A program made the position numbers and the translations under genes. A DNA stretch of 64,000 bases, from the sequence record PZ091942.1, one strand, 5' to 3'. A model generated the notes under the pieces. The model did no database searches. It was not told the DNA's origin and saw nothing but the letters and a program-made list of their open reading frames with translations. Shown piece by piece: positions 3,994 through 31,502 of this stretch; position 1 is the stretch's first letter, and each line of letters starts with the position of its first letter. The DNA is from a phage.

Positions 3994-4069
3994 GCACCCT
4001 TAGCTCAATGGATAGAGCAGCGACCTTCTAAGTCGTTGGTTACAGGTTCGAGTCCTGTAGGGTGCACCA
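3994..4069 (+). tRNA. tRNA-Arg (anticodon UCU)
   Basis: Cloverleaf read by eye: acceptor GCACCCT/AGGGTGC, D-arm GCTC-AATGGATA-GAGC, anticodon stem GCGAC/GTCGT with loop CTTCTAA, T-arm ACAGG-TTCGAGT-CCTGT, encoded CCA. Confidence 0.85.
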
Positions 4070-9075: not shown

Positions 9076-10026
9076 ATGTCAATCTCCGCATCGACTGCTC
9101 CGGTAACACCATCAGAGGATTTTGGTGAGTCAGTGTTCAGAGGGCGAGCTTGTTTTGGTACTTTCAACTGTCAGCATATGTATTCTGTTACAGACATTAA
9201 CGGCGACAGTATCAATCGCTCAAACCTTCGTGACAGAACTTCAGAAATTGGAGTTATCAACTTCTGGCCTCACAACTTTTATGGCACACCAGCTAAAGAT
9301 ATCGAAAGAGCTTTAGTTGAAGCAACAGACATTTTTAACTCAATGTCTTGCTATAAAAACATGTTCTCTGTCACTTCGGTGAACTCAGTTGCCGTGAACC
9401 TTCGAGACCACCCAGCAGACAAGGTGTTTACTGGATTAATGACCCTCCGGAGTTATCTGGATGGGGATTTTATGGGAATGGAGTTCCTTCAGGAAGGCGT
9501 TCAAGACAAGGAAGAGTTACTCAAGCGACAACGAATCGGCTTAGCTTTACGCTTAGCTGGTTTAAGTCGTAACTTCTTTGGTCGTTGGGATTATTCACAC
9601 GATGTGGATACTGATGATGAATCAGCAGCGACCTATTTTAATGGTGACATGAGTGCAATTGCATTCTTGCCACTAGTCTGTACCACTGATGAATTTTCTG
9701 AAAACGTATGGGTTCAGAATGTGTTCGGTATTGACGATAACAGAGATGGTTATGTACGAAACCACAATGACGGAGTTCTCCGCAGTATGGCTCGTCGTCG
9801 TGACCAAGACCCTGACTATTACGAAAGTATGAGTGAGTGGTTACGTCTCTGGTCAATGTGTGCAGGCCACAAACGTGAAGTATTAGATCAGCGTATGGAC
9901 AGAATTACTGTTCAAAGTTTTATTGAACGTCTGATGCAAGCAGTACCTTCCTCAATGACACCAGAAGAAGCTGGTGCCCGTGTTGTTTCCCTTTTTGATG
10001 AACTCGTGGAGTATTACAATGACTAA
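9076..10026 (+). CDS. hypothetical protein (operon member)
   Basis: ATG with AGAGG RBS; 316 aa; no recognisable motif. Confidence 0.55.
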   Translation: MSISASTAPVTPSEDFGESVFRGRACFGTFNCQHMYSVTDINGDSINRSNLRDRTSEIGVINFWPHNFYGTPAKDIERALVEATDIFNSMSCYKNMFSVTSVNSVAVNLRDHPADKVFTGLMTLRSYLDGDFMGMEFLQEGVQDKEELLKRQRIGLALRLAGLSRNFFGRWDYSHDVDTDDESAATYFNGDMSAIAFLPLVCTTDEFSENVWVQNVFGIDDNRDGYVRNHNDGVLRSMARRRDQDPDYYESMSEWLRLWSMCAGHKREVLDQRMDRITVQSFIERLMQAVPSSMTPEEAGARVVSLFDELVEYYND

Positions 10027-10825
10027 GCGTGCTTTCCTTATTGGTTCTGACCCTGAAATGTTTGTTCGTACCGCTTCTGGTATTATCACCTCTGTGGCTG
10101 GTAAGCTGGGCTGTTCCAAAGATAACAAAATCGATCTGGCCCCTGATGTTCGTCTTCAAGAAGACAACGTTCTGGCTGAGTTCGATATTAACCCACAGAA
10201 AGGGTTTGAAGCGTTTGATGATAACATCCAGCGTGGTATTGATCTGACCAACAAAGTTCTCCATGAACGTGGTATGGAAGCTGCACTTGGGATTAGCTCC
10301 CATGTGTACACTTCTGAAGAGCTGGAATCATTCCACCCGTCAGCCTTCGTATTTGGCTGTACTCCTGATTTCAACGCCTTCACTGGTCAGAAAAACCCAT
10401 CTCCGGTAGCGACAGACAAAGGTCTGCGTACCGCTGGAGGTCACGTTCACCTCGGTGTTACTGGTACACTGGAAATTAGTCGTCAGACTCAGATGATGCT
10501 GGGTGTGCTGTGCGATTACTTCCTGTCACTTCCAGCGGTTGTGATGGACAAGGACACTCGTCGTAAAGAGCTTTACGGCAAGGCATCTGCGATTCGTTAT
10601 AAAGATTACGGTATTGAATATCGTTCTCTGTCAAACTTCTGGATTGGTGAACAGTCCACTCGTAAGTTTGTTTACGATCAAGTTGATAAGGTTATTCAGG
10701 GCTGTGACATGGAAACCCTCATGTCTCTGCATTCCCGTTTGCCTATCGAAAAGCTTCACAACATCATCAACAGCAACGATGTTAAAGAAGCGGATAAGTT
10801 CTCCTCTCAACTTCAGATTATCTAA
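10019..10825 (+). CDS. hypothetical protein, possible carboxylate-amine ligase-like (weak)
   Basis: ATG 10019 overlaps upstream stop (ATGACTAA); track start 9974 rejected; GSDPEMF..GCTPDF..GGHVHLG motifs. Confidence 0.5.
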   Translation: MTKRAFLIGSDPEMFVRTASGIITSVAGKLGCSKDNKIDLAPDVRLQEDNVLAEFDINPQKGFEAFDDNIQRGIDLTNKVLHERGMEAALGISSHVYTSEELESFHPSAFVFGCTPDFNAFTGQKNPSPVATDKGLRTAGGHVHLGVTGTLEISRQTQMMLGVLCDYFLSLPAVVMDKDTRRKELYGKASAIRYKDYGIEYRSLSNFWIGEQSTRKFVYDQVDKVIQGCDMETLMSLHSRLPIEKLHNIINSNDVKEADKFSSQLQII

Positions 10826-10834
10826 GGTGTTATC

Positions 10835-11461
10835 GTGAGCCTGTTAAGAGATTTTCAGCATTATTATTGCGGAACATGGATTGCCCAACGTGCAGAACGA
10901 GGGATTAATCTCCCTCTGTATGTACTCAACGTAAGCCAACCAAGCCGCTTTGGGGAAGATGACTTCTCCCACGAAGCCGAAATGGCCTTGACCTTTGAAG
11001 TTGAACGCTGGTCTAAGAACTCCGAAGGGCAGTTTGAGCGACAAGTTGTTCAGGGTATCCCTGTGTTTGATCAGAGTCTGATTCTGGAATCTCCAGATGT
11101 GGGCTATCTACAACATGGTAACAACATGGTAAGCTGGACTCATATCAACCCTGTTCGTCAGCGAGCTAAAGGTCTGATGGGGAACAAGCTGCGTGGTGCA
11201 CCTCCTTCAATGGGACGTTCAATTCCGGGAGAGCTGGTGTATAACCTGTTCAACCCTGACTTTGAAGGTCTGGTTACTCGCTTCATCTACATTAACCCTG
11301 TTGATGGTAAAGTTTATTACAAAGGGGCGCTTGTAGGTCAAGTTGATCTTTCTGCTGGTTACGGCGACAACGGTCGTCAATCTTTAAATCTTCTGGAGAA
11401 GTTCAAGCATATTTCTTCAGACCTGTCATCATATAATGTAGAGTTGGTGGAAACGTTATGA
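10835..11461 (+). CDS. hypothetical protein (operon member)
   Basis: GTG start after AAGG; ends in ATGA overlap with next gene. Confidence 0.45.
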   Translation: MSLLRDFQHYYCGTWIAQRAERGINLPLYVLNVSQPSRFGEDDFSHEAEMALTFEVERWSKNSEGQFERQVVQGIPVFDQSLILESPDVGYLQHGNNMVSWTHINPVRQRAKGLMGNKLRGAPPSMGRSIPGELVYNLFNPDFEGLVTRFIYINPVDGKVYYKGALVGQVDLSAGYGDNGRQSLNLLEKFKHISSDLSSYNVELVETL

Positions 11462-12558
11462 CAACCGTAGCACAAGTTTTTGGATACCGTAATGCTCGTC
11501 TGGCTGAGCCGCACCCAAGCATCGCTTTTCAGTGTGGTATTGGCATCGAGCTGGAAGTTGAAGGAACCTCTGAAATTGATGCAGACCTTTGGGTTTGTAC
11601 TGAAGATGGTTCACTTCGTGATGGCTGTGAGATGGTTTGCGCACGGCCTTACAACGGTGTAGAATTGCTTCGTGCTATTAACAATCTGAGTGAAGCAGTA
11701 CAAGACTCTGAAGCTGAAGGGACTTGGCGCTGCTCTACTCATGTTCATATGGATATGCGTGACGCTGATAGTAACATCCTGAAGAAAGTAATTCTTGGAT
11801 GGACGTTCTATGAAAAGATGATGTTCAAATGTTCTGGATACCATCGCTATCGTAGCAACTTCTGTCCTGCCTTTGCTGTTGTTCAAGCACAGGTAATGAA
11901 TGCTTCCGCAGCGTTCAACCGAGATGGTGAAGCCTTCTTCAACACTCTTGTTAATAGCTGGGACAAGTACACCTCCCTTAACCTATTACCTCTGGCTCAG
12001 TTTGGTTCTGTTGAGTTTCGTATCTCAGAGCCGAAGTGGAAGAAAAGCCAACTCCTGAATCTGGTCAACCGCTTCTTGGTTCTCAAGAAACTGGCTGTTG
12101 AATATGCAGATTTGGACAATGAAGCATACGTTGAGAAACTGAATGAGCTTCGCTTCGCTCCTATGATTCAGTATCTACCTCTGGACTACACGCCTAATGA
12201 TAATGATCTTACTGAAGGTTATCGTTTGGCTCGTGACATTCTGTTCTGTCGTGAACGTTCGGTTACTCTGGTTGGTCGTGTTCGTGTACAACAGACTGGC
12301 CCTGATGGTGAAGTCCTTATCAACTTGCGTGATATGGGTGACTTCTATGGTTTCTTGGGATATGTACGGGGTAATGCCAACTCTGTTTACGAAGAGATCA
12401 TGACATATTACACCCCTCAGATTGAAAACACTCGAATCGCAACGGTTCGTGAAATTCGTCACATGTTTACTTTGATGCGTGAATCAGGTAGCAGTGATGA
12501 TAACGTCACTGGTTATATTCCAGACCATCTGGAAATGCAATTAGAACGACTGCTGTAA
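11458..12558 (+). CDS. GS-like amidoligase (carboxylate-amine ligase family, putative)
   Basis: GIGIELEVEG ... TEDGSLRDGCE ... STHVHMDMRD pattern resembles glutamine-synthetase-fold amidoligases. Confidence 0.5.
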   Translation: MTTVAQVFGYRNARLAEPHPSIAFQCGIGIELEVEGTSEIDADLWVCTEDGSLRDGCEMVCARPYNGVELLRAINNLSEAVQDSEAEGTWRCSTHVHMDMRDADSNILKKVILGWTFYEKMMFKCSGYHRYRSNFCPAFAVVQAQVMNASAAFNRDGEAFFNTLVNSWDKYTSLNLLPLAQFGSVEFRISEPKWKKSQLLNLVNRFLVLKKLAVEYADLDNEAYVEKLNELRFAPMIQYLPLDYTPNDNDLTEGYRLARDILFCRERSVTLVGRVRVQQTGPDGEVLINLRDMGDFYGFLGYVRGNANSVYEEIMTYYTPQIENTRIATVREIRHMFTLMRESGSSDDNVTGYIPDHLEMQLERLL

Positions 12559-12635
12559 CACAATGGGCGCTCTGATAAAGGGCGCATTTAAAGGTTAATT
12601 AGATGAAAGGGTTTACCCTTCAGGTGGATTAGAAA

Positions 12636-14669
12636 ATTTGTGGTATCGTATTAGCTGGGGGCAACATGACCTCCACAGACTTAGACGTATTCAACCAGCT
12701 TCTGTATGCCGGAGTCTTCCGTGGTCAGCACTCAACTGGTGTGTTCGGTCAGCGTAAAAGTGATGCAAGAGTGTTTTCTTATAAAGAAGCACTTCCTTCT
12801 TATGCTTTCATGCTTCAGACAGAGTACACGAATATTACTAAGGGGCTTACGAACTATGTAGTTCCTCCAGCGTGGATTGTTGGTCATAGCCGACATGCCA
12901 CTCGTGGCGCTGTCAATGCTCGAAATGCTCACCCGTTCTCTCATGGTGACATTACTCTGGTTCACAATGGTACATTGATGGACCAAGAGCTGTTACCTGA
13001 CCATAAGAACTTCGAAGTTGATAGCGAAAACATCTGTCATTCAATCAACACCATTGGTGCAGCAGAGACTATCCAGAAGTTGGATGGTGCGTTCACTTTA
13101 ATCTGGCATGATGCCAAAGACAATACTCTGCATATCATTCGTAACGATGAACGTCCTTTCCATCTGGCCCGTTGTGGTCTGGATTGGTTTGGTGCTTCTG
13201 AAGAAGATATGTTGATGTGGATTCTTAATCGTTCCAAGTCACACAAGAACCGTATCAATGATCACTTTGAATGTAAAGTGGGAACTGAATACATCTTTGA
13301 TTTGTCTGGCAACCGTATGACTCTGACTCAAGAGGTGGAGCACAAGCTTCCGGTTTTTACGGTAACGAGTCGCTGGGGCGGCTATTACTCGAACTCCTCT
13401 CTATATCAGAACCAACAGACAAACAAATCAAGCAGCAGCACAAGCGACATTTACGGAAACAAAGACGACAAGCCCGGCGTGACAAGCGGGGACATTCGCC
13501 GTCGTAAAGCGATTGAAGATCAGAATAAACTGGCTGCCGATCGTGGTCTTCCATATCGTCGTGATGGTCGTGTGGATATCATCCCTCACGAGTTCCATGC
13601 TTACAACAACACTGACCGTGGTAAGATGGTTGGTTATATTTATGATGATGCTGCTCAAGAATATGTTGAGGGTGATGTTCATAATGTAGCCAAGAGTGAG
13701 TACTTGAAGGCTCTCGAAAACCCAAAGGTAGTGTATCGCGGGACAGTTGCTTGTATCTCCGAAGTGGACAGTATGATTCGCCTCGTACTCACTTCAGGGC
13801 TGTTTGTTGATGCTACCGATAAGGAGCCTCAAAGCACTACCGCTGATTTTGATGATGATATCCCTTTTGATTTAGAAGACTCCTTCATCACTAAGAATGG
13901 TGTGGAAGTCACTCGTAAGTTCTGGGAATCTCATTCTCATGGTGATTGTGGCGGTTGTGACAAGCACATTGAATGGAAAGATGCTAAGAAAGCTGTGTTC
14001 GCTTACCAAGCATATTGGCATCCGGCCTGTTTCGAAGCATTGTCCAAACCATCGGAAGAAGATGAAGACATCCCTTTAGGTGTCTGTGCTGTGTGTGGCA
14101 ATGTTAAAACTGATTTCGAGTTTGATAACGAAATGAGTAAACTTCGTGGTGAAGATATTTGTTATGTCTGTGCCAAAGAAATCAAAGACAAAGTGACTAA
14201 CACTACATTGTCTGAAGGTTACATTTGGACTAAAGCAGTTGACACAACTAACCCACGCCGCCCTGAAGTAGCAGTTCGTGTTGATCAGCGTATGCTTAGC
14301 CGGATGATCGTAATGGTTAGCTCAGCTAAGCGTTCTGGAGACATTGAACTGTCTGATGTTCCTAATTCTTATTTGGAGAAACGTGGTGGTGATACTTATG
14401 CCATCTCTGTTTATGGTCCAAAGAATGCCCCAAAGGAGGTGCCCGCTGAGAAAGCGGAAACATTTCCAGAAAAACAAACAACTCTCCGAAAAACAGTTGT
14501 CAGTTACGATGGACAGCGAACAGCTGAGTTCACAAAAGCCCTCTGGACTTCAATTGGGTTTTGTGCAGTCTGTTATAAACAAATTCCGTGGCGTGATGCA
14601 GAAGTTTGCTCACTAAACAAAGAAAACAGGGTGATCTGTAATTCAGATTACTGTAAAGGTAAACATTAA
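12636..14669 (+). CDS. class II (Ntn) glutamine amidotransferase domain protein with Cys-rich C-terminal domain; probable AUU start
   Basis: GHSRHATRG..NAHPF..HNG motifs; in-frame CGIV lies upstream of track ATG 12666 with no stop between; AGGTGG 8 nt upstream of ATT 12636; C-terminal CxxC pairs. Confidence 0.6.
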   Translation: MCGIVLAGGNMTSTDLDVFNQLLYAGVFRGQHSTGVFGQRKSDARVFSYKEALPSYAFMLQTEYTNITKGLTNYVVPPAWIVGHSRHATRGAVNARNAHPFSHGDITLVHNGTLMDQELLPDHKNFEVDSENICHSINTIGAAETIQKLDGAFTLIWHDAKDNTLHIIRNDERPFHLARCGLDWFGASEEDMLMWILNRSKSHKNRINDHFECKVGTEYIFDLSGNRMTLTQEVEHKLPVFTVTSRWGGYYSNSSLYQNQQTNKSSSSTSDIYGNKDDKPGVTSGDIRRRKAIEDQNKLAADRGLPYRRDGRVDIIPHEFHAYNNTDRGKMVGYIYDDAAQEYVEGDVHNVAKSEYLKALENPKVVYRGTVACISEVDSMIRLVLTSGLFVDATDKEPQSTTADFDDDIPFDLEDSFITKNGVEVTRKFWESHSHGDCGGCDKHIEWKDAKKAVFAYQAYWHPACFEALSKPSEEDEDIPLGVCAVCGNVKTDFEFDNEMSKLRGEDICYVCAKEIKDKVTNTTLSEGYIWTKAVDTTNPRRPEVAVRVDQRMLSRMIVMVSSAKRSGDIELSDVPNSYLEKRGGDTYAISVYGPKNAPKEVPAEKAETFPEKQTTLRKTVVSYDGQRTAEFTKALWTSIGFCAVCYKQIPWRDAEVCSLNKENRVICNSDYCKGKH

Positions 14670-14680
14670 GAGGTGAAGTT

Positions 14681-14914
14681 ATGGAAGTTCGTAAATTGAT
14701 GTTGGATAACGTTGTAACCACTCGACGTATCCCAATGACAAGCACAGGATGTGACAACCTTCGAGCTATTCAGAAATGGATGCAAGAGGGTATTGGGGGA
14801 CTGGTTAACTCTCCAGTTGAAATTCCTTTCCCAACCGTTATCAACAACGTGTTGGCTGACTATGTGAAATTGAAGGGGATTAAAGTTGAGCCTCATGTCA
14901 AGCAAGGGAGCTAA
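14681..14914 (+). CDS. hypothetical protein
   Basis: ATG with AAGAGG RBS; 77 aa. Confidence 0.45.
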   Translation: MEVRKLMLDNVVTTRRIPMTSTGCDNLRAIQKWMQEGIGGLVNSPVEIPFPTVINNVLADYVKLKGIKVEPHVKQGS

Positions 14915-15116
14915 GCCTCACCTGACAATGCTGGAGTATCAACAACTCCGACTTCAACAACTGGTAACGGAGCAGCGAAAGCTGTATCCGTTTGCTTTTA
15001 ACCTAATTGATTCACCAAGCGATGACCAAGAAGACGAGATGTTCGCCAAGTATTGGGAAATCGAAGTTAAAATTCAATCCTGTCGTAACGAAATTCTTAA
15101 ACTAAAAGGTATCTAA
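14886..15116 (+). CDS. hypothetical protein (start uncertain)
   Basis: Track start is TTG; in-frame ATGs at 14895 and 14928; no clear RBS. Confidence 0.35.
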   Translation: MSLMSSKGAKPHLTMLEYQQLRLQQLVTEQRKLYPFAFNLIDSPSDDQEDEMFAKYWEIEVKIQSCRNEILKLKGI

Positions 15117-15118
15117 AA

Positions 15119-16366
15119 ATGACTACTCGTATCCGTGTTCTTCCGTATGGCCCTTCTGATTCTGTTAACGCTCTGGTAACTGCCATTAATGATACTATCC
15201 GTGATGAACGTATCAACGCTAACGTAATGGGTCTTCTTTCAGAGAACAGCCGCTGGCGTTCTCGTGAAGGTGATGTGGTTGTGAACTACGGGAACCGTCG
15301 CTATCCTGAATCATTCTTTGGTTCTGCAACTGTTCTGAACAGCACAGCATCTCTGCATATGGCAGCGAACAAGCGTCGTGCTTTTAGCGTGATGGACCAA
15401 GCAGGTGTTAAAACAGTTGAATATACAGATGTTCAATCAACTGCTCAAGAGTGGTCAAACTCTGGCAATATTGTGTATGAGCGTCATGAACTGACTGGTC
15501 ACTCTGGTTCAGGCATTGTTGTTGTAGAGCCTCGTGATTCGGTTGGTCAAGCTGAACTGTACACCAAAGGTATCCTAGGCCCACGTCGTGAATGGCGTGT
15601 CCATGTGTTCAAAGGTGCTATCACCTATGTTCAGAAAAAGATTCGTCGTAACGGTTATCGTGAAGACCCTAACTATCGTGAAGATGTTCGTAACCATCAC
15701 ACTGGTTGGGTTTACTCAAGTTCCTTCACAGACGTTCCGAACGACACCTCTCTGATCAACGCAGTGAAAGCTGTTGAATCAATGGGTCTGGATTTCGGTG
15801 CAGTTGATATCATCACCAAAGGTCAAGAAGCATGGGTACTGGAAGTTAATACAGCACCGGGCCTAACTGGCACAACTCTGGATATCTACCGTCATAATAT
15901 CCTTGAGTTTGTTAAAGCTCAAAACCCTCTTTATACTCCTCAGTATAAAGTAGTTTACCAGACTCCTGTTGAAGCTCCAATCGAAGACGGAGACGGTGAG
16001 TTGGTTGCTGACAGTGAAAGTGCTGACGATGAAAACTTTGCACTGGAAGGCCAAGTAGCACAACCGGTTGATTCAGTTGATGTGGTTCCTGAAGAAATGC
16101 AACTGGAAGGTCAGATGAATACTCAAACTATTCGTAATGCACCTACTGGTTATGTGTTGTCTCGTGGTTATTGGATTGCCAACATCCGTCATGTTCATAA
16201 CAACCTGCAACCAAATGCAATGGCTGCCAATGTCATTCTGTTCTGTGATGGTCGTAACTTCTACCGCTCTGGTTGGAACGTTCCGGTCAATCCAGTCCAG
16301 ATTCATAACCCTCGCAAGTTAGAATCTGTCAATGTTGAAGGTAGTGAAGTAGCAGTAACTCTGTAA
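15119..16366 (+). CDS. ATP-grasp ligase (RimK-like)
   Basis: GHSGSGIVVVE and GAVDIIT..EAWVLEVNTAPGL match ATP-grasp nucleotide-binding motifs. Confidence 0.65.
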   Translation: MTTRIRVLPYGPSDSVNALVTAINDTIRDERINANVMGLLSENSRWRSREGDVVVNYGNRRYPESFFGSATVLNSTASLHMAANKRRAFSVMDQAGVKTVEYTDVQSTAQEWSNSGNIVYERHELTGHSGSGIVVVEPRDSVGQAELYTKGILGPRREWRVHVFKGAITYVQKKIRRNGYREDPNYREDVRNHHTGWVYSSSFTDVPNDTSLINAVKAVESMGLDFGAVDIITKGQEAWVLEVNTAPGLTGTTLDIYRHNILEFVKAQNPLYTPQYKVVYQTPVEAPIEDGDGELVADSESADDENFALEGQVAQPVDSVDVVPEEMQLEGQMNTQTIRNAPTGYVLSRGYWIANIRHVHNNLQPNAMAANVILFCDGRNFYRSGWNVPVNPVQIHNPRKLESVNVEGSEVAVTL

Positions 16367-16392
16367 TTAAATTAAACAAAAAGGAATTTGTA

Positions 16393-16635
16393 ATGTTGTC
16401 TATCGAAGATTTGATCAGCCGTGGAATGACCGAAGAAAAAGAGCCTCTGATTGTAGGCTCTCGTAAAGCTATTAACCAACTCTGTGAAGAGTTTGGCATC
16501 ACAAACAAGAGAATGATTGGTAATCAGTTCTCTGCAATCATCACCTTCCTCAAACGAGGTGATAAATATTCAATGGAATGTGTTGAGCGTATCATCGCAA
16601 TTGCACAAGAAGATAAGGGAGTAACAACTCTGTGA
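16393..16635 (+). CDS. hypothetical protein
   Basis: 80-aa ORF with ATG after AAAAGGAA. Confidence 0.45.
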   Translation: MLSIEDLISRGMTEEKEPLIVGSRKAINQLCEEFGITNKRMIGNQFSAIITFLKRGDKYSMECVERIIAIAQEDKGVTTL

Positions 16636-16817
16636 ATAAATATACAATCATGTTTCGTACAGTATCAGCAGAAGGGAATATTCAATCTCTGGACATTCAA
16701 GCAGACCGCTTTGAATCACTTGGAACAAATGTTAATTTCTTCCGAGGTGCAGAGCTAGTAGGTATGTTCCAATCTGATGTATTGACTGGTGTGATCAAAC
16801 ACTTCGAAGTAGAATAA
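16632..16817 (+). CDS. hypothetical protein
   Basis: 61-aa ORF coupled to upstream gene; followed by TAGCC..GGGCTA-type hairpin at about 16825-16848. Confidence 0.4.
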   Translation: MNKYTIMFRTVSAEGNIQSLDIQADRFESLGTNVNFFRGAELVGMFQSDVLTGVIKHFEVE

Positions 16818-16874
16818 TTTGCTTTAGCCTCTTCGAAAGAGGGGGCTAGTTCGAATTTAACTGGAGGTTGTAAA

Positions 16875-17291
16875 ATGGTTGATAATAAACTGGATATGTT
16901 TAAAAGTCGTATCTTAGATGTAGAGTATTCCAAAAACCTCTTTGAGAAACATAAGAAAGAGGCAAAGGAAGAATTAGAAAGTCTTCTGAAAGATGAAGAG
17001 ATTCCACTCTTTAATCGCTGGTGCCTGTTTATGGAGCACAGCTCCCTTTTCCCTGTGGCTTCTAGCTCTATCAGCAGAGCTGTTAACTATGCAGTAGACC
17101 GTTATTATGACTTGGAGAGATATCGAACCTACACCCTCTCTGATATTTTTGAAGAGTATTGGTTCAAGGAAAAAGAATTGTCGAACAGTGATCTTGTGGA
17201 AGCTGTTAAGGAGAGTTTTGAACTAATCTCTGAAAAAGATGTTCGATCAATCATCTTCTCCGGATATTCTGGTTTCCTATACGATTGGTAG
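16875..17291 (+). CDS. hypothetical protein
   Basis: ATG with GGAGG RBS; 138 aa. Confidence 0.5.
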   Translation: MVDNKLDMFKSRILDVEYSKNLFEKHKKEAKEELESLLKDEEIPLFNRWCLFMEHSSLFPVASSSISRAVNYAVDRYYDLERYRTYTLSDIFEEYWFKEKELSNSDLVEAVKESFELISEKDVRSIIFSGYSGFLYDW

Positions 17292-17297
17292 ACAGTC

Positions 17298-17495
17298 ATG
17301 AAAAAGATTTTACTCCTCCTCTCCTTATTCAGCGTATCAGCAATCGCCGCTGATGAATGCATCTCTAAAGATTCAGGGAGAGGTCAAATCGTAACTCAAT
17401 GTGGCAGCCATGTAACGGTTGTCGATTCTATAACTCAAACAATTCTCGTGTGTAACGGGACTTCTTGTACAAAAGAAATTCTAAACAAAAGGTAA
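17298..17495 (+). CDS. small secreted Cys-rich protein
   Basis: Signal-peptide-like MKKILLLLSLFSVSAIA then six Cys in about 45 residues. Confidence 0.45.
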   Translation: MKKILLLLSLFSVSAIAADECISKDSGRGQIVTQCGSHVTVVDSITQTILVCNGTSCTKEILNKR

Positions 17496-17499
17496 TGTA

Positions 17500-17931
17500 A
17501 TGTCTGATAAAGTATTAGTTGCAACGTATGGTTCTCTTCGTAAAGGTCAACACAACCACGCTATCAATGCTCGTGCCGGTGGTGTGTCTATTGGTGAAGG
17601 GTGGACAGTAAACAACTGTAACCTGTATCAGTATTGCACAGCATACTTCCCAAGTGTATCTCTGGTGCATGACAGCAATGGCAAGCCTGTTCGTGTAGAA
17701 GTCTTTGAAACAACCCAAGCTGGTCTGGAAGGTCCGTATGACGGTCTGGAAGGTTATCGTGGTAAAGACAATCCGTACACCTTCTATAATCGTACACTGA
17801 TTCCAGTAGTGCTGGATAATGGTGAAACTGTGGAAGCATGGATTTATCATATCGACGAAGAACAAGATGTTCTGGTTGAATCTGGTGACTGGACAGCGTA
17901 TCTGGCAGGTGAACAGGATGACAGTAACTGA
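17500..17931 (+). CDS. gamma-glutamyl cyclotransferase-like (GGCT/AIG2 family)
   Basis: N-terminal YGSLRKG motif and downstream VEVFE acidic residue typical of the GGCT fold; AAGG RBS. Confidence 0.6.
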   Translation: MSDKVLVATYGSLRKGQHNHAINARAGGVSIGEGWTVNNCNLYQYCTAYFPSVSLVHDSNGKPVRVEVFETTQAGLEGPYDGLEGYRGKDNPYTFYNRTLIPVVLDNGETVEAWIYHIDEEQDVLVESGDWTAYLAGEQDDSN

Positions 17932-18160: not shown

Positions 18161-19951
18161 ATGTCAAAGATCATCCTAGGAGATACAGGTTGTAAAGAAT
18201 GTATCTCTCATGGTCGTGATAAGACCCACAATCACATGATTCTCTTCCGAAATGAAGAGTCCGGTGAAGAGTGGGGCAGTTGTAATCGTTGTGGTAGTTA
18301 TGAAGTTTTCGAAAAGGGAACAACTCCTACACCGAATGAGAAGAAAGAACTATCCCCTGAAGAACTCCGAGAGATCTTAGACGATTGCTTAGAGCTACCT
18401 CAGGGTGAGCTTACTCGTCGTTTGATTCCTAAAGCTGTCTCTGAACGGTATGAATGTCGTATTGGTTTAAGTCAGACAGATGGGCAAACTCCTGACAGTT
18501 ATTTCTTCCCTCGTGAACGTGATGGAAACATTGTTGGTTATGAAGTTAAGCTTCTGGACAGCAAGAAGTTCTATTACATTGGCAGTGTTAAAGAAGCCGA
18601 CTTGTTCGGCATGGCTCAAGCACAGCGTGGTGATGTATACAACAAGAAGCTCTTCATCTTTGAAGACCCACTTTCTTGTATGTCTGGTTTCCATGTGCTC
18701 ACTGCGTTCACGAACGCTACAAACATCAAACCTGCTTGTGTATCTCTACCGTTCGGTGCAGGTTCAATCTCTTCCGTTCTATCACGTAACCGTGACTTCT
18801 TGAACGGTTTTGAGGAGATTGTACTCTGCATGGACAATGATGATGCGGGTGAGATTGCATTAACTAAAGGTCGTGCATTATATCCACATGTTAAGTTTGC
18901 TCGTATTCCGAAAGGAACCTTCACTTATAATGGTCAAGAGAAGGAGATCAAAGATGCGAACGACATGTTACTCGCTGGTCGAGGTCAAGAGCTATTCAAC
19001 AATCTGAAATACTCAGCGAAGCGGGAATCGCCTGCTGGTGCTGTTACTGTCTTTGATTGCTTAGAAGATGCTCTGAAGAAAGCGGAATGGGGTATTCCTT
19101 ATCCGTGGAAAACTCTGAATGAGATGACCTTCGGCATTCGTTGGGGAGAGATGGTTGCTATCGGTGGTGGTGTTGGTTCAGGTAAAACCTTAATCGCACA
19201 CGAACTGGTAGCATGGCTTTGCCTTGAACATGGTTTTAATGGTGGTGGCTTCTTCTTGGAAGAGAAGGTAGGCATGTCTGTTAAGAACATTGCAGGTAAG
19301 TCAGCATCTGTACCTTTCCACCGACCTGATGTTGAGTATGAGGAAGCTCAGTTACGTGACGAAGCACTTCGTTACGCTGATAAGTTCTTCTTGTATGACA
19401 ACTTCGGACAGAACGAGTGGGATGATATTAAGCAGTGTATTCGCTTCTGGGTAGTCGAGAATCAGTGTAAGTTTATCATTCTTGATAACATTACTGCGCT
19501 AGTCTCTCACCTAACTCCGTCTGAGGTGAATACAGAAATCAGTAAGATTGCTTCAGAGCTTGCTGGTATGTGTAAGGAATTAGACTTCACTGCTTTTGTA
19601 TTATCTCACTTGAATGCTCCGGCAGGTGGTGCTCCTCACGAAGAAGGTGGACAGGTGAAAGAAGTTCAGTTCACTGGTTCACGTTCACTAATGCGTTGGT
19701 GTCAGTGCATCATCGGTTTTGAGCGAGATAAGCAAGCTGATGGGTTAGGCAAGAACTTGTCAATCATACGACTCCTCAAAGAGCGTAACTATGGTCAGAC
19801 AGGTGTTTGCTACACCAAGTACATCAATGAAACAGGTCGACTTGTAGAACGAGAAGATCATGAAGTTGATGAAGCTAATCCGTTTGTCTTGACCAATGGT
19901 GAGGATGCAGCTTCTCTGCTCACACAAGACGGGGAGGCACGACCTTGGTAA
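18161..19951 (+). CDS. DNA primase-helicase (T7 gp4-like)
   Basis: AAGGAGG RBS; N-terminal zinc ribbon CKEC..CNRC, Walker [10 protein letters not shown], Walker B FIILDNIT. Confidence 0.85.
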
Positions 19952-20493
19952 AGAAAATATTCGCCTTCGATATCGAGGGTGATAATCTTTATGAGGGCAT
20001 CCAAAATGTCTGGTGTATCTGGATATTTGATGCTCTTACAGGTGAACGGTGGGGGTATCGCCCTCACCAAATTGAAGAAGCTCTTCACAAACTGAAAGAA
20101 GCTGATGTAGTTGTAGGTCATAACATTATCGACTTCGACCTTCCAGCTCTCTTTAAATTCTACTCTCATGTAATACCTTTCCACTTCAATGTCTTCGATA
20201 CACTTTGCCTGAGTCGTTATCTCAAGCCTGACCGTATTGGAGACAATCCAGAATACCCCAAAGGCGACCCTAGACATGGCCCTCGTGGTCATGGCCTCAA
20301 GCAATGGGGCGAATTCCTGGGTGAGCTGAAGGGTGATTATGGTGAGCAGGAAGAAGCATGGGATGCATTCACTGAAGACATGTTCACATATTGTGAGCAA
20401 GACGTTAACTTAACAGTTAAGGTTTACATGTGTCTTTGCCAAATGGCAGGATTTGATTATAAGAATCCCCCATCTCTCAACTGGAAAATGTAG
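19945..20493 (+). CDS. 3'-5' proofreading exonuclease (DEDDy, DNA polymerase exonuclease domain as separate gene)
   Basis: Exo I FDIEGD, Exo [13 protein letters not shown], Exo III YCEQD; TTG start with GGGGAGG RBS, overlapping helicase stop. Confidence 0.75.
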
Positions 20494-20495
20494 AA

Positions 20496-21944
20496 ATGAT
20501 TAAGATTCCATTGTCTGAATTGAACCTTCAAGAAGGAGAAGCCCTCAGTGTAGGGCTTGACCTAATTCGTAATTTGATCAGAGATAACGTAGTCCCTGAT
20601 GGTATCTATCCTGTCATTGCAGGTGGTGCTATCCGTGATACGTTCTTCCAAAATCGAACTCCGAATGATGTTGATATCTTCCTAGTTCAAGGAGGGCTTC
20701 GTTGGAACACTCGTCAGGAAAACAGCCCTGCTAACGTAGGTAATGCTGCACTTTTCCTTGACAACTTCTTATCTTGGACAGAAAGTAAGGGGCTTCAGGT
20801 TACATCTCGACTAATTCAGCCTGTTAACGGGACAACCTATGCTGAAGCGCTTTTCACTTTCCAAGAGATTCTGGAAATTGAGATTGATCAAGTTAAAATC
20901 CAGATGATGATTAATCTACCTTTGGATATGGATACTTTAAGCCGTCGCTTCCCTATGATCTGTCAAGGGTTTATGACTCTTGGTAATCTGTATGTGTCAA
21001 ACGAAGGTTTGTTTGCAATGTCATACACTCGTGACATTCCTGTGGTATCTAGTCGTGAAATGAAGTACGTTCACAAGAAGTGGCCTGAAGCAACTGTTGC
21101 AGTTTATAGCAGTTCTACCGAATATATGCACCTTGCAATGGGAGCTTTCGGTGAGCCAGAAGTTCACCTGATTAGTGATTTAGTTGGACCTATGGCTGGT
21201 GTAAATTTATATCAGAATCAGCGTCGTCATTATACCCTGAAGATGATGGAAACTATATTAAACATTCCTCAGGAAAGGGGTCGTAGTTATCTGGACGAGG
21301 AAGTTAACCTACAGACAGAATGGTCTAGTGGATTAACCACTATCGGTGCTGAAGCAATCACACAACCTTGGACTCCGGGAACCAACAGACGTGACTCTTG
21401 GCAACAGGAAGTCCCAAGATTCGCAGCCCCTTCTACAATGGACCCTCGTAATACTTTTAATGGCAGTTTTGGTAGTGCACGTTCTTCTGGGACGGACACC
21501 CACAACCGTACATGGCATGTTCAAGGGGGAACTGCTCGTCCTATTCCTTCTCCGTCAATGGGTGATTTACAGCGTTCTCGTCGTTCATGGGAAACAGTAA
21601 GCTCAGTTGTTCAGGGTCTACGTGCTGGTGATATAGAACGTGTAGAAGTTGGTGATTTGCCAACCCCTATGGAAGATCGAGTGTCAACTATAGCGGCTCG
21701 TGAAGCTGCTCGTGTTGGTTTTCCATCTTTAGCTAATGATGCTAACAATACTCCTCGACCTGTCGGTCGTCGTAACGGTCTGGCTCACTCTGACACTGCA
21801 CTTGGTGCAGAACTTCGAGCTGCTGCTCGTGAACTATCTGGTGAGCTTCATAACAACTTAGCAGGTGTTACACTATCTCGTGAAACAGCTCGCAACATGA
21901 TTAACAATTTGGCATCATCTGTACAAGGAAATAGAAACTCATGA
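20496..21944 (+). CDS. nucleotidyltransferase (Pol-beta superfamily, CCA-adding/poly(A) polymerase-like head motif)
   Basis: VIAGGAIRDTFFQNRTPNDVDIFLV matches GGxVRD...DxD head-domain motif; C-terminal 200 aa low-complexity. Confidence 0.45.
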   Translation: MIKIPLSELNLQEGEALSVGLDLIRNLIRDNVVPDGIYPVIAGGAIRDTFFQNRTPNDVDIFLVQGGLRWNTRQENSPANVGNAALFLDNFLSWTESKGLQVTSRLIQPVNGTTYAEALFTFQEILEIEIDQVKIQMMINLPLDMDTLSRRFPMICQGFMTLGNLYVSNEGLFAMSYTRDIPVVSSREMKYVHKKWPEATVAVYSSSTEYMHLAMGAFGEPEVHLISDLVGPMAGVNLYQNQRRHYTLKMMETILNIPQERGRSYLDEEVNLQTEWSSGLTTIGAEAITQPWTPGTNRRDSWQQEVPRFAAPSTMDPRNTFNGSFGSARSSGTDTHNRTWHVQGGTARPIPSPSMGDLQRSRRSWETVSSVVQGLRAGDIERVEVGDLPTPMEDRVSTIAAREAARVGFPSLANDANNTPRPVGRRNGLAHSDTALGAELRAAARELSGELHNNLAGVTLSRETARNMINNLASSVQGNRNS

Positions 21945-22474
21945 GTCTTTTAGGTTCTCAAGAATTACACAGCGTTATTGATAATGGCTTTTTAGATGCG
22001 GAGCATAAATATGTTAACGCTGCTAGCGTGGATATCCGTATTGGTGATACTATCCTTGTTGAAGAACAGGCTGACGGCATTGTTGACATTGATGCTAAAG
22101 AAAACCTCAAGTGGAAAGAAGTAAAAATCCCTGAAGATGGTATCGTTATCACTCCGGGACAGTTCTTCTTAGCTCACTCGATGGAAGAGTTTAACCTTCC
22201 AGATAATATCTCAAGCCTGTTTGTACTCCGCTCCTCAATGGCTCGTTGTGGTTTAAACCACCTCCATGCTGGTTGGGCTGATGCAGGGTTTAACAGCAGT
22301 AAACTAACCTTTGAATTTCATAACGTTACCCATAATCATAGCTTACGAGTTCGTGCTGGGATGCGTGTTGGTCAAATGGTTATGTTCGAACACTCTCACG
22401 CTGGTGATGACTCTTATGCAGTGAAGGGTCGATACAACGGCAGTAATGGTGTAGTTGCATCTAAGGGTGTATAA
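21941..22474 (+). CDS. dcd: dCTP deaminase
   Basis: ASVDIRIGD and LRSSMARCGLNHLHAGWADAGFNS..LTFEFHN match dCTP deaminase/dUTPase-fold signatures. Confidence 0.75.
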   Translation: MSLLGSQELHSVIDNGFLDAEHKYVNAASVDIRIGDTILVEEQADGIVDIDAKENLKWKEVKIPEDGIVITPGQFFLAHSMEEFNLPDNISSLFVLRSSMARCGLNHLHAGWADAGFNSSKLTFEFHNVTHNHSLRVRAGMRVGQMVMFEHSHAGDDSYAVKGRYNGSNGVVASKGV

Positions 22475-23122: not shown

Positions 23123-23131
23123 AAATGTATA
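23123..23131 (+). promoter_or_regulatory. AAATGTATA promoter-like motif
   Basis: Near-copy of TAATGTATA motif, 37 nt upstream of ATG 23169. Confidence 0.3.
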
Positions 23132-23168
23132 TACAGTATAAGAATATTGTATGAAACAGGAGAGAGTT

Positions 23169-23498
23169 ATGTTAGATTTGAGTAAAGTGGCCCCGCCATC
23201 TGAAGAGATTAGCAAAGCTAAAGTTATGCAGCAGTTCTACCATCGGGATATGCTTGGTCGTTATATCAAGAATCGTGATGTTGTTGCATGGTCTATTGGA
23301 AATCAAGGTTATCTTCTCAAAGTGTTGCAAGTTACTGGCTCAACAGCCAAGCGTGTTAAGGTGTATGACCCTGAAATGGGGCGTTCTAAGTCTGTAGACC
23401 CACAGAACTGCATCGTTATTACCCAGCAAGTAATGGATAATATTGAACGCAATGTAGCGAACTCAACTAACTTAGAGGGAGAATCTCCAAATGCATAA
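23169..23498 (+). CDS. hypothetical protein
   Basis: ATG with AGGAG RBS (track start 23151 lacks RBS). Confidence 0.5.
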   Translation: MLDLSKVAPPSEEISKAKVMQQFYHRDMLGRYIKNRDVVAWSIGNQGYLLKVLQVTGSTAKRVKVYDPEMGRSKSVDPQNCIVITQQVMDNIERNVANSTNLEGESPNA

Positions 23499-24057
23499 TA
23501 ATGTCTTCGACTTACCAGAACTGACACGAGTGGGTTCTAGCAACCCATTCTCTACAACTGACTCTTCTATCTCTCGTCTAGAGGGAATGAATAAACTGAT
23601 CAGTGGTAACAGTCTAGAGCACATCCTATGCGGTGTGCAGGCTAACCTTGAGCTTCTACACATCAAAGCAAAGAATTATCACTGGAACGTCTCTGGAGCT
23701 GGTTTCCAAGGTGTTCATGGTATGTTCGATGAATTAGAAGACTATGCTCGTGAAACTGGTGATCGGGTAGCAGAGCGAATGCGTTATCACTGTATTAAAG
23801 TGGATGCAACAGCTAGTAGCTATCTTGGTTGTGCTTGGTTCCGAGAAGGTAACGCTGATCTCGACATGGACGGTATGCTTTCCGACATGTGCATGACTCT
23901 TATGTGTATGATTGAGAAGATGGATGAGTTTGATTCAGACTTGTGCACCTATCCAGTAGACCAGAGTATGCTTCAAGAAATTAATGAAGGTCTTGGCAAG
24001 TTCTGTTACTTCGTCAAGAGCAACATGTCCCACTCTAGTGGCGATGTGTCTTACTAA
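23491..24057 (+). CDS. Dps-like ferritin-family protein (putative)
   Basis: LCGVQANLELLHIKAKNYHWNVSGAGFQGVHGMFDELEDYARETGDRVAERM matches the Dps signature. Confidence 0.5.
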   Translation: MHNNVFDLPELTRVGSSNPFSTTDSSISRLEGMNKLISGNSLEHILCGVQANLELLHIKAKNYHWNVSGAGFQGVHGMFDELEDYARETGDRVAERMRYHCIKVDATASSYLGCAWFREGNADLDMDGMLSDMCMTLMCMIEKMDEFDSDLCTYPVDQSMLQEINEGLGKFCYFVKSNMSHSSGDVSY

Positions 24058-29641: not shown

Positions 29642-29657
29642 TTATAAGGAGTGGGTG

Positions 29658-31502
29658 ATGGATAACCCTGATAAGTTACCTTTCATAACGGAGATGACAG
29701 TCGCTGATATAATCTCAAAGCAGGCGAAGCATGGCGTCAACTTCCACAGAAGAAACGCTCGGTGGTTTGTTCACCTTCTCAAAGAGATTATTGTCAATAT
29801 TGATAAAGAACTGATTCCTCTCCTCCCCAAAATGCGGGTGGATGGTTCAACTTATTCGAAACCTTTTAAGAAGTCAGGTGCTTTGCAAAAGTGGCCTCAG
29901 CTCTATTGTGACAGAGTTGGTCTTAAAAGAGAAGATATCGGTGGGGCGTTTACTTGCGTTGAGTATGTAGACTTTGACCCATCGAAAGATGCACGTATTA
30001 AAGAAGCCTTGATGGATGAAGGCTTCATTCCTCCAGAGTGGAATACATCCAAGAAACCTTGGAATACTTATGAAATCCGTAAAGCGATGAAGAAGTATGG
30101 CACATATGCTGCTTGGTATTCTGCTTGGATGCGAGGAAACGCTAAAGAAAAACAGACAGCTGAGATGATTGATGCTGACATTCGTCGGTTCTTGGATAAA
30201 CACTTCCGTTATCACACTGTCAACTACATGAAAGCCTACGTCAGCGGTTTAGGTTTGAATCCTAATAGGAAGAAGCCTGTAACCTTTGATGAAATCAAGA
30301 AAGCTTTAGCCATGTCAAACAAGTGGCCTACAGCTCCTACAAACCTTGAGGAGACACTTGAAGAAGGTCTTGGTGGTGATCTAGGAGGTGTGGGAAGTCT
30401 GCTTAAGAGACGCGTTGTAGCGGCTCACAGACTTGGTTTGATTAGCGGGCTTATCGACAAGGAACGTAAAGATGGTAAGTTGTCCGCCGAAGCTAATAGC
30501 TGCGCTACTCCGACATTTCGTTTTAAACATCGCATTGTTGTTAATATTCCTTCTCGCGGTTTGTTTGGTCACGAGTGCCGCAGTCTTTTTCAATCTGACT
30601 ATTCCTCAGACGATAGTCATAACTATCCTTTCATCATTACCAACCATATCCCTGATGGGTGTTACGTACGAAAAGGTACTAACATTATCTACGAAGTGGG
30701 AAAACCGGGCAAGAAAGACAAACCTGTAGGTGCCTATAAATTCTATGTACCTGCTGGTCGTGAAATCTTCTTAGGTTACGATGGCTCTGGTCTTGAGCTG
30801 AGGATGCTAGCTCACTACCTTATTAAAGAATGTCGTGAGATGCTCGCTGAAGCAGAGCGAGAAAACAACCCAGCTAAGAAACGAGAAGCTGAACGTGGTC
30901 TAGCTTCTGCTGTTATGTACAGAGATATTCTTTTAGAAGGAGATATTCACTCACATAACCAAAAACTTGCTGGTCTTCCTACTCGCGATAACGCTAAGAC
31001 GTTTATATATGCCTTTAACTATGGGGCAGGTGACGCTAAGCTAGGAAGTATCGTAGGTGGTGGCTCTGACGAAGGGGCTATTATGAGAGCAAGATTCTTA
31101 GCAGAGAATCCTTGTATTGCAATCCTTATTGAACGTATGACCGAGAAAGCACAAAGTGGATACATCTACGGTGTGGATGGACGTCGTATTACAATGAGAA
31201 GGGATGCAACTGGAAAGGTTATGGTTCATAAAGCCTTAAATACGCTCTTACAGAGCGCTGGGGCGATTGTTATGAAGTATGCAATGCTATTCCTCAATAA
31301 ATGGATTGAGCGTGATGGTGTTCGTTGTGCGAAGGTTATCGACATGCATGATGAAGGCCAGTTCACTGTACATCGTGAAGATGTTAACAAACTTCGTACT
31401 CTCACTGAAGAGTGTGTTCGTAAAGCGGGTGAATACCTCAAGATGGAATGCCCTCTTGCATCAGATTGTAAGATTGGGCTTAACTGGAATCATACTCACT
31501 AA
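29658..31502 (+). CDS. DNA polymerase, family A polymerase domain (T7 gp5-like, lacks exonuclease domain)
   Basis: AAGGAG RBS; motif A DGSGLELRMLAHY, motif B RDNAKTFIYAFNYGAG, motif C MHDEGQ. Confidence 0.85.
   Translation: MDNPDKLPFITEMTVADIISKQAKHGVNFHRRNARWFVHLLKEIIVNIDKELIPLLPKMRVDGSTYSKPFKKSGALQKWPQLYCDRVGLKREDIGGAFTCVEYVDFDPSKDARIKEALMDEGFIPPEWNTSKKPWNTYEIRKAMKKYGTYAAWYSAWMRGNAKEKQTAEMIDADIRRFLDKHFRYHTVNYMKAYVSGLGLNPNRKKPVTFDEIKKALAMSNKWPTAPTNLEETLEEGLGGDLGGVGSLLKRRVVAAHRLGLISGLIDKERKDGKLSAEANSCATPTFRFKHRIVVNIPSRGLFGHECRSLFQSDYSSDDSHNYPFIITNHIPDGCYVRKGTNIIYEVGKPGKKDKPVGAYKFYVPAGREIFLGYDGSGLELRMLAHYLIKECREMLAEAERENNPAKKREAERGLASAVMYRDILLEGDIHSHNQKLAGLPTRDNAKTFIYAFNYGAGDAKLGSIVGGGSDEGAIMRARFLAENPCIAILIERMTEKAQSGYIYGVDGRRITMRRDATGKVMVHKALNTLLQSAGAIVMKYAMLFLNKWIERDGVRCAKVIDMHDEGQFTVHREDVNKLRTLTEECVRKAGEYLKMECPLASDCKIGLNWNHTH

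Follow-up and report, generated by a model that had tools for sequence, protein, structure and literature searches.

A conserved phage nucleotidyltransferase with a class II-type head and a disordered tail: predicted fold, relatives and possible roles

The window, a stretch of 64,000 nucleotides of phage DNA (sequence record PZ091942.1), contains at positions 20496..21944 a gene for a predicted nucleotidyltransferase (NTase), and the question raised by this locus is which nucleotide the protein transfers and to what acceptor. The initial annotation, made from the sequence alone, had recognised the head motif of the CCA-adding enzymes and a long low-complexity tail, and had proposed a CCA-adding or tRNA-repair activity that would fit the tRNA of the phage. 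The reading we prefer, and to which we give about an even chance, is that of an active, template-independent terminal NTase that would add nucleoside or deoxynucleoside monophosphates to a nucleic-acid 3′-OH, with a specificity that is not of the CCA type and with a fast-evolving disordered tail as a tether. In such an enzyme, two-metal chemistry would move the nucleoside monophosphate from an NTP or dNTP to the 3′-OH of a nucleic-acid end, while the disordered tail of about 200 residues, with its few conserved helices, would most likely serve as its tether to a protein partner or a substrate.

The open reading frame (on the plus strand, as are all features of the window described below) starts with ATG, encodes 482 amino acids followed by a stop codon, and is the sole open frame at that place; it is confirmed as a real gene. 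The DNA of the window is 97.8% identical to that of Escherichia phage ECBP2 (Gordonclarkvirinae, Suseptimavirus), a phiEco32-like coliphage, and 88–93% identical to that of about 20 further phages. The protein is the ortholog of ECBP2_0071, with which it shares 98% amino-acid identity, and of phiEco32 gp73 (phi32_73). At the protein level, orthologs were found in all 98 Gordonclarkvirinae records of a phage collection, among them phiEco32 gp73 (437 residues), KBNP1711 (426 residues), SU10 gp74 and NJ01; the phiEco32, SU10 and NJ01 orthologs occupy the same genomic position, and their identity of about 32% is confined to residues 1–283. The protein matches PHROG 12715, described as "nucleotidyltransferase", over residues 1–475 (E-value 7e-173). 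Since ECBP2_0071 and Bas87_0069 carry the same label in RefSeq, the annotation as an NTase was already known and is not new. One peptide of the SU10 ortholog (50.9 kDa) has been found by mass spectrometry; the protein is listed with the early gene products, its gene region belonging to the early class (PMC4281155). A close ortholog (P0008) is deposited as a hypothetical protein of "Shigella sonnei", on a contig of 76,497 bp, apparently an entire phage genome within a bacterial assembly. Virulent phages reportedly persist in bacterial isolates, according to a preprint.

The amino-terminal NTase domain (20496..21344, residues 1–283) consists of a class II-like head with a family-specific alpha/beta extension. 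Motif A (20619..20681, residues 42–62, AGGAIRDTFFQNRTPNDVDIF) includes the GGxxRD helix as well as both metal-binding aspartates, Asp58 and Asp60; the AGGAIRD and NDVDIF segments noted initially are indeed there, at residues 42–48 and 57–62. The motif of the window protein, GGAIRDTFFQNRTPNDVD, aligns with that of the E. coli CCA-adding enzyme, GGAVRDALLGLPVKDRD, and with that of PDB entry 6ibp (GGAVRD...DxD), and follows the class II pattern GGxVRDxxxGxxxxDxD. It likewise has the Pol-beta signature, hG[GS] and then, on the following strand, [DE]h[DE]h, with Gly43-Gly44 and Asp58-Val-Asp60-Ile-Phe unchanged in 26 of 26 homologs. In the alignment of these homologs, which are 21–35% identical to the window protein, Gly43, Gly44, Arg47, Asp48, Asp58, Asp60, Phe62, Tyr115, Ile125, Gln136, Pro153, Tyr191 and Lys195 are invariant, which at such low identity places the motif beyond chance. 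A third catalytic carboxylate would be provided by Glu124 (20865..20867), on a strand (residues 122–130) assigned from the AlphaFold model; the position is Asp or Glu in all 26 homologs and would lie at the metal site, the catalytic role being suggested by the analogous strand of class II enzymes ("E-V-A-T-F-R"). Further along the chain, the family-specific helix motif Arg187-Glu-x-x-Tyr191-x-x-x-Lys195 (REMKYVHKK, 21054..21080) recurs as [RKT][DE]xxYxxxK in every homolog, with Tyr191 and Lys195 invariant.

The family is small. Exhaustively searched with HMMER, a set of 1.84 billion representative proteins yielded only 28 relatives, most of them 270–450 residues long and sharing residues 1 to about 215–285. 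In a word-indexed protein search all matches were at least 86% identical, and a rerun with the family alignment contributed one further distant member. Scans of the window protein against Pfam and NCBIfam gave nothing, even at E-values up to 1, and a phmmer search of the single protein against the PDB gave noise only. The family as a whole is more informative: 17 of the 26 members have sub-threshold matches to the PolyA_pol head (PF01743), the best at 21.8 bits against a gathering threshold of 23 bits, and the best PDB match of the family profile is a CCA-adding enzyme (E-value 0.0018). The AlphaFold model, built on the family alignment, is confident for residues 1–283, with predicted local distance difference test (pLDDT) values of mostly 85–97, and has the alpha/beta fold of the NTases; in a Foldseek search against the PDB, class II enzymes that add CCA, CC or A, together with poly(A) polymerase I, make up nearly all of the top 40 matches (E-values of about 1e-4). 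In this model, residues 1–283 are shown to fold as the head and part of the neck of the class II template-independent RNA NTases, to which bacterial poly(A) polymerase I and the CCA- and A-adding enzymes belong. From the invariant catalytic residues, the sub-threshold PF01743 matches, the PDB profile match and the Foldseek results, the protein is assigned as a Pol-beta-fold NTase with a head of class II type and a predicted intact catalytic signature. The class of head named in the initial annotation has thus held up in profile and fold searches, even though the Pfam search it had called for found no match for the protein itself.

The likeness to the CCA-adding enzymes does not extend to the motifs that select the substrate. 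In class II enzymes, motif B (RRD) recognises the ribose and motif D (EDxxR) serves as an amino-acid template in the selection of C and A; RRD(L/F)TIN and EDP(L/V)R are present in both E. coli CCA and PcnB. No RRD is found in residues 1–285 of any of the 26 members, which have a conserved FPxxC at the expected position, and no [ED]DxxR is conserved among them, the one match being a chance occurrence at a non-homologous position. That FPxxC stands in the place of motif B, and R[DE]xxYxxxK (REMKYVHKK in the window protein) roughly in that of motif D, is suggested by the succession of predicted secondary-structure elements and not by an alignment: when the family was compared by hhalign with E. 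coli CCA, with PcnB and with the pair of them, only the alignment to motif A of CCA was credible, and relaxed alignments past motif A were meaningless, so the mapping from motif B to motif D relies solely on secondary-structure order. In addition, the Pfam scan detected neither PolyA_pol_RNAbd nor tRNA_NucTran2_2 body or tail domains in the window protein, there is no helical tRNA- or RNA-binding body or tail, many homologs stop at about 280 residues, and none of the 26 members reaches the gathering threshold of PF01743. Judged by its sequence, the protein is not a canonical CCA-adding enzyme. With motifs B and D and a tRNA-docking body or tail missing, its nucleotide and acceptor specificity would have to differ from that of such an enzyme.

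The tail begins with a variable disordered linker (21345..21530, residues 284–345; pLDDT 31–50), in which close relatives differ by in-frame insertions and deletions, and continues as a carboxy-terminal region (21531..21941, residues 346–482) made up of four predicted helices (residues 355–376, 393–406, 435–455 and 462–481) with disordered segments between them. Its composition is much as first described, rich in Arg (11.6%), Ser (10.1%), Gly (9.0%) and Thr (8.0%), to which Ala (11.1%) and a richness in Asn and Pro are to be added; hydrophobic residues make up 20.6% of the tail versus 38.5% of the amino-terminal domain, and the expected disorder is borne out by pLDDT values below 50 over most of residues 284–482. 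Whether this half of the protein is translated had been left as a point to check, and the reading frame indicates that it is. In nine orthologs the frame is kept and the carboxy-terminus is common, gene lengths ranging from 1437 to 1473 nucleotides with all differences multiples of three. The ratio of non-synonymous to synonymous substitution rates (dN/dS) is 0.38 for residues 284–345, 0.27 for residues 346–482 and 0.18 for the last 52 residues, versus 0.095 for the amino-terminal domain; both halves of the protein are under purifying selection. The last 21 residues are invariant in 16 aligned close relatives, save for one Asn-to-Asp change in phage IME267. That the tail could be untranslated, or read in another frame, is ruled out by the same ratios, by the in-frame insertions and deletions and by the two alternative frames, which have dN/dS of at least 1 and 7–31 stop codons.

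The tail is specific to the lineage. Its only match in the exhaustive search was a near-identical ortholog (P0019), so homologs are not detected beyond the lineage; it is missing from the homologs of about 280 residues, and the phiEco32 and KBNP1711 tails are barely alignable with it. Between genera, the tails of the gp73-type proteins (482, 437 and 426 residues) vary in length, sequence and charge, with an isoelectric point of 11.0 in the window phage versus 4.9 in phiEco32 and KBNP1711. Since the net charge is not conserved, a generic basic arm for binding nucleic acid or RNA was considered and is unlikely. A carboxy-terminal helix resembling (T/S)(L/M)EE(V/A)R.N(V/I)N..A recurs in two distant members (P0026 and P0028), and the combination of recurring helical motifs with disordered linkers suggests elements for binding a partner.

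A second group of relatives came from predicted viral structures (BFVD), where the matches after the Kuravirus ortholog are small proteins of T7-like phages that contain only the head (E-values 5e-9 to 6e-4), from phiAS7, LIMEzero, Providencia PS3 and Vibrio VEN, mostly of 186–215 residues, with ICP1 ORF223 at 137 residues. For PHROG 1614 there are matches among both groups: the proteins of phiAS7 and LIMEzero, and, at E-values of 5e-6 to 5e-9, members of the window family. In a profile-profile comparison (hhalign), the family and the head-only NTases align with a probability of 95% and an E-value of 2.9e-8 over 104 columns, which cover the inserted helix and the conserved tyrosine. By these profiles, the gp73-type NTases and the head-only NTases of the Autographiviridae are homologous. 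The latter (PHROG 1614; for example phiAS7_00003, LIMEzero ORF22 and J8-65 gp17) are encoded in the replication module: their genes adjoin the DNA polymerase gene in phiAS7, LIMEzero, J8-65 and a Drulisvirus, and a primase or primase/helicase gene in Ghunavirus WRT and Alteromonas H4/4. Members of this group lie beside DNA polymerase, primase or primase/helicase genes in our loci L019 (3050-3661, minus strand), L020 (10162-10767, plus strand), L021 (3450-4133), L022 (3456-3995), L023 (3417-3965) and L024 (3444-4013). In the two replication regions scanned, those of phiAS7 and LIMEzero (partial genomes), no tRNA genes were found. In the literature, the head-only proteins of T7-like phages are described only as "putative tRNA nucleotidyltransferase" (Evseev et al. 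2020, PMC7693777; PMC9145550).

The gene itself lies in a conserved block. It is preceded by the T7-type primase/helicase gene (18161..19951; PHROG 239, E-value 4e-174), the first gene of the block, and by the gene for a 3′-5′ exonuclease subunit of the DNA polymerase (19945..20493, 182 residues; PF01612, E-value 9e-7; PHROG 38876/403), the stop codon of which is 2 nucleotides before the NTase start. It is followed by the dCTP deaminase gene (21941..22474; PF22769, E-value 1.6e-34), with an ATG that overlaps the NTase stop codon (ATGA). The order of the four genes is common to ECBP2, Bas87, phiEco32 and KBNP1711, and is also present in three metagenomic phages (loci L005, L015 and L016), in which the NTases are 26–32% identical and tailless. 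No promoters or terminators rise above background inside the block or at the NTase gene, which is probably translationally coupled with the rest of the block.

Some observations on the surroundings can be added. The sequence AAATGTATA at 23123-23131 has one mismatch to the phiEco32 gp36-sigma promoter element tAATGTAtA and lies upstream of the open reading frame 23151-23498, the positional equivalent of phiEco32 gene 68, which has a gp36-sigma promoter (PMC8948821); the element would put the NTase gene in the transcription unit upstream of it. The family A DNA polymerase is split, the exonuclease subunit (19945-20493) being encoded about 9 kb away from a polymerase-domain subunit of 615 residues (29655-31502; PF00476), and in ECBP2 the polymerase gene is additionally interrupted by an HNH endonuclease. 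The exonuclease subunit gene has a TTG start and overlaps the 3′ end of the primase/helicase gene. A Dps/ferritin-like protein (PF00210) is encoded at 23491-24057, and in related loci the NTase and dCTP deaminase genes are closely followed by genes for thioredoxin and ThyX, an arrangement kept in a distant relative (L005, 12818-14114). Upstream of the replication genes, a conserved cluster of peptide- or amide-bond enzymes (9974-17931) contains a phiEco32-type COOH-NH2 ligase (PF14395), an Amidoligase_2, a class II glutamine amidotransferase (667 residues), a RimK-like ATP-grasp protein and a gamma-glutamyl cyclotransferase; the set is also present in ECBP2, Bas87 and one distant metagenomic relative.

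Against this background, other roles for the protein have to be weighed. We consider it unlikely to be a bona fide tRNA CCA-adding or 3′-end repair enzyme, acting on the phage tRNA-Arg or on tRNAs of the host after damage by defence nucleases or toxins. The head motif, the fold nearest to the class II tRNA NTases, the one tRNA carried by the phage and the labels of the T7-like relatives argue for such an enzyme, but motifs B and D are conserved in none of the 26 members, the tRNA-binding domains are missing, and homologs as small as about 180–200 residues sit in T7-like replication regions with no tRNA gene in the two scanned. Nor does the tie to the phage tRNA that was originally proposed hold: the single tRNA of the window, tRNA-Arg with anticodon UCU (3994-4069), has the gene 3′ end ...GGGTGC-A-CCA, and needs no CCA addition because CCA is encoded; the E. 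coli host carries a cca gene of its own, and the genomic context is one of DNA replication and dNTP supply. The caveat that other NTase roles were to be kept in mind was apt. A role as an accessory of the replisome, either as a terminal transferase on primers and DNA 3′ ends or as a structural partner of the split DNA polymerase docked via the tail, would agree with the position of the gene directly 3′ of the exonuclease subunit gene, with the polymerase and primase neighbours of the Autographiviridae homologs and with the short conserved tail helices, which are typical of protein-binding motifs. Even so, adjacency is a weak argument in the middle-gene regions of phages, because genes for host takeover sit there too, most homologs lack the tail, and the nearest folds act on RNA; we hold this role to be quite improbable. 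Least probable is the synthesis of signalling or decoy nucleotides by a CD-NTase- or OAS-like enzyme, or the nucleotidylation of proteins or small molecules, in anti-defence or host takeover: the GGxxRD helix is a class II signature, and the Pfam and NCBIfam scans gave no signal of that kind.

A further alternative, which we regard as doubtful, is a pathway for covalent DNA modification or for a non-canonical nucleotide, shared with the adjacent dCTP deaminase, which would explain the restriction resistance of the Gordonclarkvirinae. According to the BASEL II paper (PMC11990801), these phages are markedly resistant to restriction-modification systems, and precisely the locus of "dCTP deaminase and nucleotidyltransferase" may signal that their DNA is covalently modified. 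The numbers of EcoRI (13), EcoRV (30), EcoKI (6) and EcoP1 (128) sites in the window are near expectation, so the resistance is not due to a loss of sites. The gene is invariably located between those for the polymerase exonuclease subunit and the dCTP deaminase, and loss of the ribose-sensing RRD would suit the use of dNTPs. Other sites are strongly avoided, however: CCWGG with 5 occurrences against about 110 expected, GATC with 121 against about 296, PstI with 0 against about 22, BamHI with 0 against about 11 and HindIII with 20 against about 51. The avoidance of CCWGG, GATC, PstI and BamHI sites suggests that the DNA is exposed to some restriction, and would be needless if the genome were fully protected. 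The phage also encodes ThyX, which makes the dCTP deaminase part of an ordinary route of dTTP supply, and the literature searched contains no chemical evidence of modified bases in Kuravirus DNA. We know of no DNA-modification pathway that uses an NTase head of class II type, and the T7-like homologs occur in phages that, to our knowledge, are not known for modified DNA. A broader proposal, that the gp73-type and the head-only T7-like NTases form one replisome-coupled family acting on DNA or dNTPs and not on tRNA, for example in DNA modification or in the tailing of DNA or primer 3′ ends, and that this underlies the restriction resistance of the Gordonclarkvirinae, also seems improbable to us.

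Several points weigh against terminal nucleotidyl transfer as the preferred reading. Motifs B and D, which define the choice of NTP and base in class II enzymes, are absent, and the similarity to these enzymes past motif A is not significant (hhalign probability 11–28%). An RNA or tRNA 3′ end would be the most probable acceptor, a choice we infer purely by analogy with the nearest structural relatives; the conserved neighbours are genes of DNA replication and dNTP metabolism, and fit a DNA- or dNTP-linked role equally as well as an RNA role. The literature searched on the gp73-type and T7-like NTases held only annotations and one hypothesis, and no assayed function. What makes the protein worth pursuing is that its gene belongs to the core of the 98 Gordonclarkvirinae records and is under strong purifying selection, that its catalytic signature appears intact, and that it has relatives beside the replication genes of many T7-like phages. 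Should its substrate prove to be a tRNA or RNA end, the protein would represent a class II NTase in minimal form, tethered by its tail; should it turn out to work on DNA or dNTPs, it could account for the way in which the Kuravirus and Suseptimavirus phages used in therapy resist restriction.

When the protein is set beside known systems, the combination that would mark a CD-NTase (cGAS/DncV-like), namely a closest fold match of that kind and a core with a C-terminal helical lobe, was not found. A stand-alone CCA-adding-enzyme head is known from bacteria, the 191-residue NP_344798.1 (PDB entry 2la3), and is similar more weakly. The head-only NTases of T7-like phages (180–230 residues) lack both the extension of residues 150–283 and the tail, and where they have FDxN(I/L)NQ, which resembles motif B, the gp73-type family has FPxxC. 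The reference class II enzymes (Pfam PF01743, PolyA_pol head; PDB entries 3aql, 1miv, 4wby, 3h37 and 1ou5) differ from the window family by a helix-containing insertion that the latter has between strands 2 and 3 (residues 78–98 form the helix in the model), and in structural alignments the window protein is 10–14% identical to them.

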